Shown in pieces: positions 10,294 to 25,443 of a stretch of DNA of 64,000 bases. The DNA comes from Escherichia coli (GTDB lineage: Bacteria; Pseudomonadota; Gammaproteobacteria; Enterobacterales; Enterobacteriaceae), in assembly GCF_024700885.2 (NCBI RefSeq), contig NZ_CP117016.1; one strand, given 5' to 3'. Under the pieces are notes generated by a model. That model was not told where the DNA came from and made no database searches. It was given only the letters and a program-made list of their open reading frames with translations. Position numbers and translations under genes: made by a program. Every line of letters starts with the position of its first letter. Position 1 is the first letter of the stretch.

Positions 10294-11496
10294 ATGGCAG
10301 TATTGACGGATACGAAAGCAAGACATATCAAACCTGATGACAAACCATTGCCCCATGGGGGAATTACCGGACTGACCCTTCATCCTTCTTCAGTAAAGGG
10401 GCGGGGGAAATGGGTTTTTCGTTATGTAAGTCCGGTGACACAAAAAAGACGTAATGCTGGATTGGGAACTTACCCAGAGGTCAGTATTGCTGAAGCTGCA
10501 CGTACTGCCCGGATAATGCGAGAGCAACTTGCTGCAGGTGATGATCCTCTGGAGATTAAAAAGGCTGAATCTGAGAAAGTCGCTATCCCAACATTTGCCG
10601 ATGCAGCCAGGCGTGTACATGCAGAACTGTCTCCTGGATGGGAAAATCCAAAGCATGTAAGGCAGTGGTTATCGACGCTTGAGAATTACGCGTTTCCTCA
10701 ACTGGGAGCAAAAACGCTGGATTCGATTACGGCTGCGGATGTGGCAGAAACACTGCGTCCAGTCTGGTTAACCTTGTCAGAAACGGCAAGCCGGGTTAAA
10801 CAGCGCATTCATGTTGTTATGCAGTGGGGATGGGCGCACGGTTTTTGTGTAGCAAATCCTGTTGATGTGGTTGACCATTTGCTTCCTCAGCAGACAAGAG
10901 GACGTGATGAACACCAACCCGCAATGCCCTGGAGGCAGTTACCGCTTTTTGTGGCGACCAGTGTGTATACCGATGAACCTTATAATGTTACCCGCGCACT
11001 GTTATTAATGGTGATACTTACAGCAACTCGCTCGGGCGAAGCCAGGGGAATGCGCTGGGCTGAAATTGATTTTCATAAGCGGGTATGGACTATACCTGCA
11101 GAAAGAATGAAAGCTAGGCTACAGCATCGTGTTCCTTTATCCCGGCAGGCTATTTACATTCTGGAAAATATACGTGGCCTGCATGATGAACTGGTGTTCC
11201 CTTCACCCAGAAAGCAGCAGATCCTTTCCGATATGGTGTTGACAAGTTTTCTACGTAAAAAGAAAGCCGTCAGTGACATTCCGGGGCGAGTTGCCACGGC
11301 ACATGGTTTTCGCTCAACATTCAGGGACTGGTGTAGCGAACAGGGGTATTCGCGGGATCTGGCGGAAAGGGCGCTCGCTCATACGCTGAAAAATAAGGTT
11401 GAGGCGGCATATCATCGTACTGATCTACTGGAGCAGCGTGTACCGATGATGCAGGCATGGGCGGATTATGTGATGTCTCAAATTGTGAATAAATAA
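10294..11496 (+). CDS. P4-type tyrosine recombinase / integrase
   Basis: 400 aa; N-terminus MAVLTDTKARHIKPDDKPLPHGGITGLTLHP (arm-binding domain typical of P4-like integrases); C-terminal catalytic motifs AHGFRSTFRDW and AAYHRTDLLEQR. Confidence 0.9.
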   Translation: MAVLTDTKARHIKPDDKPLPHGGITGLTLHPSSVKGRGKWVFRYVSPVTQKRRNAGLGTYPEVSIAEAARTARIMREQLAAGDDPLEIKKAESEKVAIPTFADAARRVHAELSPGWENPKHVRQWLSTLENYAFPQLGAKTLDSITAADVAETLRPVWLTLSETASRVKQRIHVVMQWGWAHGFCVANPVDVVDHLLPQQTRGRDEHQPAMPWRQLPLFVATSVYTDEPYNVTRALLLMVILTATRSGEARGMRWAEIDFHKRVWTIPAERMKARLQHRVPLSRQAIYILENIRGLHDELVFPSPRKQQILSDMVLTSFLRKKKAVSDIPGRVATAHGFRSTFRDWCSEQGYSRDLAERALAHTLKNKVEAAYHRTDLLEQRVPMMQAWADYVMSQIVNK

Positions 11497-11682
11497 TAGT
11501 GAAAATGTATATTGTACGATCATGATTTGATATGTGATCGTAGCAGTAGTAATTAAGAAACCGCTTTTATGTCAAATGTATTGAGCTGATAATTATCAGA
11601 TCGTCAGGAAAGCGTATTTTGATTAACAGGGGATTACTTAACAATCCCCTTTTTATAAAAAATAATTTGCCTGTTTAACTCT

Positions 11683-24010: not shown

Positions 24011-25443
24011 TATCTGATAACAAAGTTACCTATCATGAGGTTGACTTCCTGCTGCCAGCACAGAGGTTTAACATTCAGTTTTCCTATGTTTCCCAGAAGG
24101 GGCTGCCATTTATCCGGGAGTTTGTGCTGAGACTTGTTCATGTAGCTTCGATGAGCAAAGCACAAATAGCAACCTATTTCGGCCTGACCCACCGTGAGAC
24201 AGAGGAGGCGATTTCCGATCTTGTGCAGCGTGGCGAATTGACGCTCTCCTCAGACGGCAGACTGGCCTTAACAGACAAATCAAATGGCTATTTTTCAGAG
24301 GTTGGCGAGATACCGCATCTTTCAACTATTCAGGACAGTGGCTGTACTTTATCCTTTGATTTAGCCACATTTAGTTGCTTCAGCAACCAGGCTTTTCAGG
24401 ACCACTGGAGGGGAGGGGTAACATTAAAGGTTGATGACAACAACATTTCTCAAAGTGAGAAACTGGTTGAGAAGCACTTTCAATACCAGTTTAATCAAAT
24501 CCTGGATAAAGGTTACCTGTCTCACCTGCAGGTTCAGGTCGGAAAAGAACAACCTTCTATCTATACCGTTAATTCTGTTAATAAGCTGCGGCAAATACCA
24601 CTCCGTTTAACAACGGAATTTAAAATGGATAGCGATGGTAAGGCTGTCGAGCGTGAAGACTATGAACAGTTAAATAGTTCGGAATGTGTTCATGAGTTAA
24701 TGGCTGTTGAGATAGCCAGGTTATCACGGCATAACAATACCATGAGTATTTTTAAGGCCATGCAATCCATTAACGATGACCTTACGCTTAAGCTGTTTGA
24801 CTCTAAAACGAATCGACTTAATCCGTTGTTTATCAAAGATATGCAAGCACTGGAAGAATACTCGTCCTCAGGCAGAACGACTTTTTTAGGTCCGGTTTAT
24901 TCTAAAAACAACTGGGAAAAGCTGCAGAAAGCTCTGGCACCAGCGCTCAATCAGCGTATCAGAGATAAAACTGATTATGGAGGTAGCCCGTTCATCTGGG
25001 TGGCACCATCAGATCCCTACTGGTCAAAAAGCATTCGATTTATCTCAAGCCTGAGCAATTTTCTTAGCAAGTCGGCTACGAAGGATAAGCAGCTGTATAA
25101 ACCGGTGCTGTACGTACCTGTCCGGGATGCAGCTGATGCTCGGGTTGCCATACAGTGGAAGTATGAACTTGGGCAATTCCATGAGTACGCTAAAGGACTA
25201 GTTGAGGGGCTGTTAGATGGTAATGTTGAGATCCTTCATCTTGAGGATGAGTTATCTGCCGTTATCTATCATATTTCTCAACCCGAAATATTGCCTGTAA
25301 CGATGCCACTGGGCTTTATCACAACGAACAAAGAAACGGTTAAGATTATTGGTACTCTGGTTACTGAATATATCAAAGGCACCACTGGCTTTGATAAGTT
25401 TCATGACTGTGGCGCAATTTCGGCAATGATTAAGAAAGGTTGA
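24007..25443 (+). CDS. Hypothetical 478-aa partner protein, translationally coupled to the helicase gene
   Basis: ATG overlaps the upstream stop (ATGA, 4-nt overlap); N-terminal region [31 protein letters not shown] resembles a winged-HTH; remainder unassigned. Confidence 0.8.

Follow-up and report, generated by a model that had tools for sequence, protein, structure and literature searches.

Two type I Mokosh anti-phage systems are recorded as verified in Tables S1 and S8 of Millman et al. (2022; bioRxiv 10.1101/2022.05.11.491447). SG199 from Escherichia coli SEC470, marked 'Verified' in these tables, comprises an MkoA of 1652 aa, labelled 'Kinase-Helicase', and an MkoB of 478 aa with the label 'HTH' (helix-turn-helix), and the system of enterotoxigenic E. 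coli (ETEC) H10407 pairs an MkoA of 1215 aa with a 602-aa 'HTH-PLD' MkoB (PLD, phospholipase D). According to the preprint, the ATP-binding site of the helicase is required for Mokosh defence, and in systems that bear a PLD domain the PLD active site is required as well (Millman et al., 2022). Defence cargo has been described on integrase-only islands at tRNA hotspots (Hochhauser et al., 2023; PMC10121019) and on Pseudomonas islands of the IntY/AlpA/Gp2-like kind (PMC12595487), and a family of pathogenicity islands (PAI) resides at the tRNA gene serX. Here we analyse positions 10294 to 25443 of a 64,000-nt stretch of E. coli DNA (contig NZ_CP117016.1; 'the window' is this whole stretch), which an earlier reading made from the letters alone, hereafter the sequence-only reading, had taken for the variable cargo slot of a P4/CP4-57-type integrase island filled with a novel two-gene defence locus. 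The segment is the integrase-side end of an approximately 80.3-kb genomic island at serX that is built like CP4-57 of strain K-12, and its cargo pair, as judged by profile matches and sequence identity, is Mokosh type I, a system described before and verified by experiment. The earlier finding is correct in outline but ordinary, with system, island type and serX site all previously known. We assign a probability of roughly 0.87 to the full explanation, i.e. a CP4-57-like variant of the serX islands, a Mokosh block acquired in one event and the mechanism that we infer for MkoAB.

Bases 9000-27000 of the window are 100% identical to the chromosome of E. coli strain MLI114 (NZ_CP117013.1), and 248 of the 5426 complete E. 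coli genomes in our census, to which all E. coli counts below refer, hold at least 80% of that stretch. Gene order was read from the RefSeq annotation of the identical record and from our own list of open reading frames (ORFs); all ORFs named in the sequence-only reading are present where it had placed them. RefSeq labels the cargo pair only as 'AAA domain-containing protein' (19052-24010) and hypothetical protein (24007-25443). The first gene, mkoA (19052..24010, + strand), encodes a 1652-aa protein with a NERD nuclease-like domain, two kinase-like domains and an Upf1-like superfamily 1 (SF1) helicase; the second, mkoB (24007..25443, + strand), encodes 478 aa with an N-terminal winged HTH and a C-terminal PLD-fold domain. 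The genes overlap by 4 nt in an ATGA start/stop arrangement. The PADLOC profile for MkoA (PDLC03921) matches with 2212 bits, aligning residues 1-1652 to profile positions 1-1603 of 1607, and that for MkoB (PDLC03923) matches over the full length with 503 bits. Compared with SG199, MkoA is 92.5% and MkoB 98% identical over the 399 residues per protein that the supplement displays. Moreover, 296 nt upstream in the cloned SG199 fragment align to window positions 18768-19062 and include the primase gene remnant described below, so the verified system derives from this same island junction. Architecture, protein lengths and upstream junction agree, and the differences from SG199 are allelic only. 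Relative to the H10407 system, the window MkoA has an additional NERD domain and a second kinase-like domain, and its MkoB is without the HKD motif.

The expectation that the two genes are defence cargo is thereby borne out through PADLOC and the identity to SG199, and the locus loses its claim to novelty. A defence system unrelated to any known one might have been suspected from the RefSeq labels and from MkoB, for which neither Pfam nor NCBIfam returned a match; the full-length PADLOC matches of both proteins and the near-identity to SG199 refute this and leave it virtually no probability. Anti-phage defence has been reported for the 92-98% identical SEC470 system, from which a defence role is predicted for the window allele. 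A locus annotated as 'AAA domain-containing' plus 'hypothetical' is in this way resolved as verified Mokosh type I and placed in the backbone of a serX pathogenicity island. The sequence-only reading had also likened the large helicase and its partner of about 500 aa to yfjK/yfjL of CP4-57, genes now named abpB/abpA ('anti-bacteriophage protein'). The likeness holds as one between analogous defence pairs and fails as homology: BLASTP of MkoA/MkoB against AbpB/AbpA gave nothing below E = 2.6, and a homologous relationship was rejected.

The domain assignment of MkoA can be followed down to single residues (numbered from the ATG at 19052). Pfam detects NERD as well as Pkinase, the latter at 270-447 and at 577-657, and the helicase part matches the IGHMBP2 family TIGR00376 with E = 6e-50; there is also similarity to PglW and MAD6 kinases. 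The PD-(D/E)xK residues of the NERD domain are D72, E85 and K87. HRD lies at 361-363 in the first kinase-like domain, and HGD at 631-633, N638 and D652 in the second, while the SF1 helicase has its Walker A motif at 1090-1097 and DEAA at 1345-1348. Across 22 orthologues of 53-92% identity these catalytic motifs are invariant or nearly so, with GPPGTGKT, DEAA, HRD and HGD...N...D invariant.

The attachment (att) site of the island was recognized indirectly. ARAGORN detected neither a tRNA nor a tmRNA in the window, and the site was therefore identified from a 14-nt 3' fragment of tRNA-Ser; comparison with K-12 and with the remainder of the genome confirmed it. Repeat units of about 180 nt occupy 9856..10133 (- strand; 98-nt direct repeat), each with the final 14-19 nt of tRNA-Ser at its end. 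The tRNA-Ser 3' end in reverse complement, TGGCGGTGAGGGGG, stands on the + strand at 9940-9953 and 10120-10133, i.e. twice in the window against 0.02 occurrences expected by chance. As the stretch is 97% identical to approximately 3.5 such units downstream of serX in K-12, the repeats represent native sequence, and the left island junction falls at 10133/10134. MLI114 has its intact serX outside the window, 80,334 bp further to the right; this gene is the only other place in the genome, 80.3 kb away, where the 14-nt tRNA-Ser 3' end occurs, and no further att copy was found between the junction and intact serX. The direct repeats of the SRL PAI are 14 bp and thus of the same length as the repeat found here (PMC7545054; PMC3064760). 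At the end of the island that is remote from the tRNA gene, the integrase adjoins the displaced 3' fragment of the tRNA and reads inward; it is not the neighbour of the intact tRNA gene.

Several minor observations concern the same region. Rfam at its gathering threshold returned nothing for 8500-26500. In other strains RefSeq names the equivalent serX-downstream repeats 'RtT sRNA', and the tandem units, which in K-12 lie at 13966-14584 of our locus L012, resemble the rtT repeats of tyrT. Every unit of about 180 nt carries the last 19 nt of tRNA-Ser and provides an extra att-like core for serX-targeting integrases. The distance between the integrase and the displaced tRNA 3' fragment is about 160-175 nt both in the serX island (10120-10294) and in the aspV island of strain M37H (25183-25372 in our locus L005); the usual order of tRNA gene and integrase in CP4-57 and P4 has the opposite geometry. 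To the left of the integrase lie phoH and a DUF2726 gene, the latter at 8600-9855 between phoH and the serX repeats, in place of pgaABCD-dgcT-ycdU; pga is kept in other lineages.

With both ends defined, the island can be compared with its relatives as a whole. The order of CP4-57 in K-12, which we checked, is intA, yfjH (- strand), alpA, yfjI, yfjJ, yfjK/yfjL and rnlAB. The modules come in the same order in both islands: the integrase, one variable gene read in the opposite direction, AlpA, YfjI and a gene that in the serX island is putatively of the Gp2/YfjJ type, with cargo and a distal module beyond them. The cargo of each includes a helicase-plus-partner defence pair. The serX-proximal 12 kb, annotated by RefSeq as genes for a GTPase, Ag43, DUF932, antirestriction, JAB/RadC, DUF987, YeeU/CbtA and DUF4942 proteins, constitute the same distal module as yfjP...ypjF of K-12, so that the whole island is CP4-57-like. 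The assignment to a P4/CP4-57-type module is in fact exceeded, because the whole element of about 80 kb mirrors CP4-57 from end to end. CP4-57 targets ssrA and has its integrase on the tRNA-proximal side, whereas the island studied here targets serX and has its integrase on the tRNA-distal side. Its backbone furthermore had originally an extra PrimPol-helicase gene (PrimPol, primase-polymerase); identities to the K-12 proteins amount to 34%, 52% and 41%, and the counterpart of YfjJ is a remote relative at the level of the family.

The integration site is that of PAI-CFT073/UTI89-serX, the Shigella SRL PAI and O157 OI-48/SpLE1 (PMC7545054; PMC3064760), and the island is a variant of these classic serX pathogenicity islands. 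In the other variants one finds ter/iha, S pilus or microcin genes; in the present one Mokosh stands where the PrimPol-helicase gene has lost its 3' part. The elements of PMC10121019 and PMC12595487 likewise are integrated at tRNA/tmRNA genes, encode an integrase, AlpA and an inovirus Gp2-like protein, lack obvious transfer machinery and carry defence among diverse cargo. They belong, however, to another genus or to other integrase lineages, and in Pseudomonas alpA is found at the far end; in contrast to them, the island at serX is mainly a pathogenicity island with defence as minor cargo. Its interior contains malX/malY/enterotoxin, sugar genes, iro (salmochelin) remnants, afa-type fimbriae and many insertion sequence (IS) fragments, and everything between the two end modules is mosaic cargo. 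This content, in which salmochelin remnants, Ag43 and fimbriae recur, agrees with the published serX islands. The island illustrates a known principle: where integrase islands occupy tRNA genes, cargo for defence, virulence and metabolism is brought together by IS-mediated and illegitimate recombination, with no dedicated slot.

The gene order integrase, alpA-like, yfjI-like, yfjJ-like and cargo proposed by the sequence-only reading is real, with the yfjJ-like assignment weak by direct comparison. The intact P4-family tyrosine integrase (10294..11496, + strand, 400 aa) is 34% identical to IntA of K-12 over 408 aa (E = 2e-54). It matches NCBIfam PRK09692 with 187 bits and E = 3.5e-55, yet stays under NCBI's curated cutoff, and is 72% identical to the integrase of the M37H aspV island, where the geometry is the same. 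An AlpA-like HTH regulator/excisionase is encoded at 14600..14908 (+ strand; RefSeq start 14612), shares 52% identity with K-12 AlpA and carries the PHROGs label 'excisionase and transcriptional regulator'. The YfjI-like DUF3987 protein of 483 aa, a putative replicative helicase (15542..16993, + strand; RefSeq start 15560), is 41% identical to YfjI over its full length (E = 2e-126), matches Pfam DUF3987 with E = 6e-84 and belongs to PHROG 2373, 'DNA helicase'. It is preceded by the remains of a second yfjI-like gene, a 65-aa N-terminal fragment (15144..15341, + strand) with 44% identity to YfjI residues 15-75; as this fragment lies inside a 203-nt direct repeat (15107-15309 versus 15574-15776), it is a duplication remnant. 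The small ORF is not alpA. Shortly before the start of both the yfjI fragment and the yfjI-like gene, at 15010-15045 and 15485-15527, we noted iterated 9-nt units (GCTATTGTC/GCTATTGTA) and an imperfect palindrome, which could be iterons or operators of a replication module.

The following gene (17814..18377, + strand) encodes an inovirus Gp2/YagK-YfjJ-like protein of 187 aa, a divergent rolling-circle Rep-like protein. Its Pfam matches are REP_ORF2-G2P with E = 1e-3 and YagK_YfjJ_C with E = 0.39, and BLASTP against YfjJ of K-12 aligned an 18-aa motif alone; K-12 YfjJ itself matches PF11726 (YagK_YfjJ_C) with 1e-63. Its homologues with 36-68% identity do have the domains PF11726 and/or PF23343, and RefSeq calls orthologues 'YagK/YfjJ domain-containing' and the window copy 'inovirus-type Gp2 protein'. 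From these similarities the protein is best described as a putative divergent member of the Gp2/YagK-YfjJ Rep-like group. Backbone genes unrelated to yfjI and yfjJ would have spoken against the sequence-only reading; homology to yfjI is firm (E 2e-126), whereas yfjJ is reached only via the PF11726/PF23343 domains of homologues. Beyond it, at 18532..18867 (+ strand), a pseudogene annotated by RefSeq as truncated 'TOTE conflict system archaeo-eukaryotic primase' is the 5' remnant of the PrimPol-helicase gene. In O157, O111 and other versions of the backbone this gene is intact and encodes 786 aa with PrimPol and superfamily 2 (SF2) helicase domains.

In the gap between integrase and alpA, the position of yfjH in CP4-57, an ORF with 32% G+C encodes a 605-aa protein on the - strand (11683..13500). 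Searches in Pfam, PADLOC, NCBIfam, PHROGs and the Protein Data Bank (PDB) gave no match, and the homologues found are all from E. coli with at least 91% identity. A 31%-identical protein of 613 aa sits at the same position in M37H, unrelated proteins of 537 and 545 aa are found there elsewhere, and yfjH in K-12. With such lineage-specific ORFans, the gap could be a second cargo slot for single-gene defence or anti-defence functions. PADLOC, NCBIfam and PHROGs gave no defence-system assignment for the integrase, the 605-aa ORFan or the Gp2-like protein, and PHROGs yielded no match to P4-satellite capsid-hijacking functions (psu, delta, sid) among the genes between integrase and mkoB. An IS1 transposase remnant, annotated as a pseudogene by RefSeq (13697..14389, + strand), also occurs in the O157, O111 and extraintestinal pathogenic E. 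coli (ExPEC) versions of the backbone.

How Mokosh came to lie behind this backbone can be read from the edges of the homologous segments. From 10059 the backbone is 98.4% identical to the serX island of O157:H7 up to 18864, where homology stops. The sequence beyond is shared as a block with other loci, at 18871-25437 with one of Citrobacter and at 19037-25412 with the aspV island of M37H; it is absent from strains such as GU2018_CL13, NU14 and avian pathogenic E. coli (APEC) O18, which have the same flanks. We therefore delimit an acquired block of about 6.6 kb (18865..25508); Mokosh type I lies within it, and the block has taken the place of the PrimPol-helicase gene's 3' part. At its right edge lies a fragment of an IS66-family transposase gene (25509..25595; RefSeq pseudogene), 88.6% identical to IS66 tnpC of strain OkiPb01692, which opens the flank in common with a Mokosh-less strain (L009). 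It is followed by a 3' fragment of rsmI (16S rRNA methyltransferase; 25602..25856, + strand; RefSeq pseudogene), with which the next island block begins (enterotoxin, malY, malX, agaR, garD'). Mokosh is present in 311 of the 5426 genomes, and the backbone (yfjI-like and Gp2 genes, at least 80% coverage) in 1379. The junction between the primase remnant and mkoA is identical in 280 of the 311 Mokosh genomes (90%), which argues for one recombination event that spread with the island and not for a reusable insertion site. The Mokosh block was joined to the backbone inside the PrimPol-helicase gene, which was destroyed thereby, and the island afterwards spread in this form. One lineage has since lost the entire backbone, and with it a piece of mkoA, to a deletion mediated by IS1A.

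One might alternatively regard the block as the leftover end of a second, formerly independent element at rsmI that was joined to the serX island by accretion. The rsmI fragment, in the same orientation and about 160 nt downstream of mkoB, and the captured garD'-agaR-kbaZ'/kbaY' block behind it would fit such an origin. Strains without Mokosh, however, carry IS66'-rsmI'-enterotoxin straight after the Gp2-like gene (192 genomes), so that the rsmI' block and the Mokosh block are separable, and homology to Mokosh loci of other genera already stops at 25437, before the IS66 fragment. Accretion of an rsmI element is for these reasons very improbable, and acquisition of the Mokosh block in a single event is retained.

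The sequence-only reading regarded the position after yfjJ as a variable cargo site. That contents differ among genomes with the same backbone is correct; the position does not look site-specific, nor is it dedicated to defence. In O157:H7, O111 and SJ2D, the Gp2-like gene is followed by the intact 786-aa PrimPol-helicase gene and then by IS elements and traT. UTAK-2, with another integrase and site, has the intact PrimPol-helicase gene, ISEc8 and EspI, and OkiPb01692 the intact PrimPol-helicase gene, a hypothetical/DprA-like pair and cdiBA. A strain of sequence type (ST) 80 has the primase remnant, IS debris, DAHP (3-deoxy-D-arabino-heptulosonate 7-phosphate) synthase and microcin H47, JNQH498 a group II intron and then galactan-utilisation genes, and in GU2018_CL13 and FDAARGOS_1251 IS66'-rsmI'-enterotoxin follows at once, with neither primase nor Mokosh. 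The 3' part of the PrimPol-helicase gene is present in 686 and the Mokosh-less Gp2-IS66'-rsmI' junction in 192 of the 5426 genomes. The K-12-type yfjI-yfjJ pair occurs in 384 genomes, nearly all of them laboratory derivatives of K-12. In two natural relatives of CP4-57, yfjJ is followed by IS elements and the clpK heat-resistance locus, or by IS630, mug' and an ABC transporter. What follows the Gp2-like gene thus varies among backbone genomes, the contents inspected are mostly non-defence, and with EspI, microcin H47, contact-dependent inhibition (CDI), sugar genes, a heat-resistance locus and IS debris among its occupants the slot is not dedicated to defence.

These data also bear on a stronger version of the idea, in which the position after yfjJ is a dedicated and repeatedly reloaded defence hotspot like those of P2 and P4, with cassettes inserted by a specific mechanism. 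Defence genes do occur there twice, AbpAB and then RnlAB in K-12 CP4-57 and Mokosh in the island at serX, and the content behind the Gp2-like gene differs among genomes that have the same backbone. Yet most of the sampled occupants, from IS elements with traT to nothing at all, are not defence genes, the breakpoints lie inside the PrimPol-helicase gene and at the IS66 fragment with no flanking repeats, and a single identical junction accounts for 280 of the 311 Mokosh genomes. In M37H, moreover, a Mokosh of 91% identity is found on the other side of the inverted alpA-DUF3987-Gp2 module. We hence consider a dedicated hotspot improbable and prefer a single joining of the Mokosh block to the serX island.

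Mokosh genes outside E. coli were surveyed with one genome per species, which returned 30 loci. MkoB homologues, alike in length and without a Pfam domain, occur in many Gamma- and Betaproteobacteria. As the sequence-only reading had suggested checking, the two genes go together: mkoA lies immediately upstream of mkoB in all 30 loci, a few of which have a frameshifted or truncated mkoA, and no other conserved neighbour was found in them. The seven loci sampled for neighbours contain Avs1b, BREX PglZ/BrxL, Gabija (twice), a type III restriction-modification system and a recombinase adjoining tRNA-Met. Loci of different genera are homologous from 10-180 nt upstream of mkoA as far as the mkoB stop codon or a point just ahead of it. 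The flanks are unrelated between genera, and a mobile cassette with its own repeats was rejected as a description of Mokosh. The mkoAB pair is a self-contained cassette typical of defence islands.

Several findings weigh against our explanation of the island and its cargo. A tblastn search with an E. coli panel of AlpA, YfjI and Gp2 detected none of them within 10 kb in 28 Mokosh loci of other taxa, a search that distant versions could escape, and a P4-like integrase is near only one or two of the 28; the association of Mokosh with this backbone is accordingly specific to E. coli islands. The Gp2-like protein is only distantly related to YfjJ, and the integrase stands far from the tRNA gene, unlike CP4-57, where intA abuts ssrA. 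As to the cargo, the PLD-fold domain of MkoB is without the HxK(x)4D motif, although the canonical description of Mokosh requires a PLD active site, and the table of Millman et al. (10.1101/2022.05.11.491447) gives 'HTH' as the only label of the SG199 MkoB. Finally, the mechanism set out below is hypothetical, and a 2025 preprint reports that its authors were unable to purify Mokosh type I.

Regarding the mechanism, MkoA would act as a multi-domain sensor and effector, the Upf1-like SF1 helicase of which may engage phage RNA or replication intermediates, while the NERD PD-(D/E)xK domain, the kinase domains or both may execute or signal the response. The winged HTH of MkoB would bind nucleic acid. 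As the PLD-fold domain of MkoB is without a canonical HKD motif, the protein would be a nuclease of a non-canonical kind or else a regulatory subunit. The two genes appear to be translationally coupled and the proteins probably act as a complex, with sensing through the helicase and the winged HTH. It is conceivable that MkoB may keep the PLD fold but lose HKD chemistry and then serve as a winged-HTH nucleic-acid sensor or regulator, in which case killing or degradation would be the task of the invariant NERD PD-(D/E)xK domain of MkoA, of kinase signalling or of both. If this is true, the mechanism differs from the textbook description of Mokosh as RNA helicase plus PLD nuclease. The combination of an MkoB devoid of HKD chemistry, activity residing in the NERD or kinase domains of MkoA, and an int-alpA gap serving as second cargo slot is tentative, and we consider it rather unlikely to hold in full. 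Two points of interest remain, namely that a verified system has an MkoB without the HKD motif, and the ORFans of the int-alpA gap.

Some further observations were made on related loci and on the rest of the island. In strain SUISSEKPC3NDM5 (5056-11194 in our locus L004), IS1A joins pgaA straight to a clipped mkoA. The Mokosh genes of M37H (L005, 5836-11829) are accompanied by a 920-aa S-adenosylmethionine (SAM)-dependent methyltransferase with weak similarity to PglX, a 681-aa DEAD/DEAH helicase and a 392-aa GIY-YIG nuclease, a set that may be another defence system and for which NCBIfam gives no identification. The pair behind the PrimPol-helicase gene of OkiPb01692 (15498-17014 in our locus L011, - strand) consists of a 208-aa hypothetical protein and a DprA-like protein under the TIGR00732 cutoff; neither PHROGs nor NCBIfam gave a match of recognized function, and it is possible that the two form a cargo pair. 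A 7.9-kb contig (SFGN01000089.1) from a 'Lachnospiraceae bacterium' metagenome-assembled genome (MAG) encodes proteins 100% identical to the end of the window Gp2, the primase remnant, MkoA and MkoB, and is almost certainly E. coli DNA that was mis-binned into a MAG of Firmicutes.

Further along the same island, just past the window (NZ_CP117013.1, 3204942-3214277), hsdM, hsdS and hsdR of a type I restriction-modification system make up a second defence cluster, in which darT-darG (DarTG) is embedded between hsdS and hsdR, followed by an M48 peptidase gene. Within the window, positions 25602-33000 hold the rsmI 3' fragment, enterotoxin, malY, malX, fused kbaZ'/kbaY' aldolase fragments, agaR and garD'. 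It has the appearance of a degraded copy of the chromosomal garD-aga-rsmI region that was captured by the serX island, some 2 Mb away from where this region natively lies.

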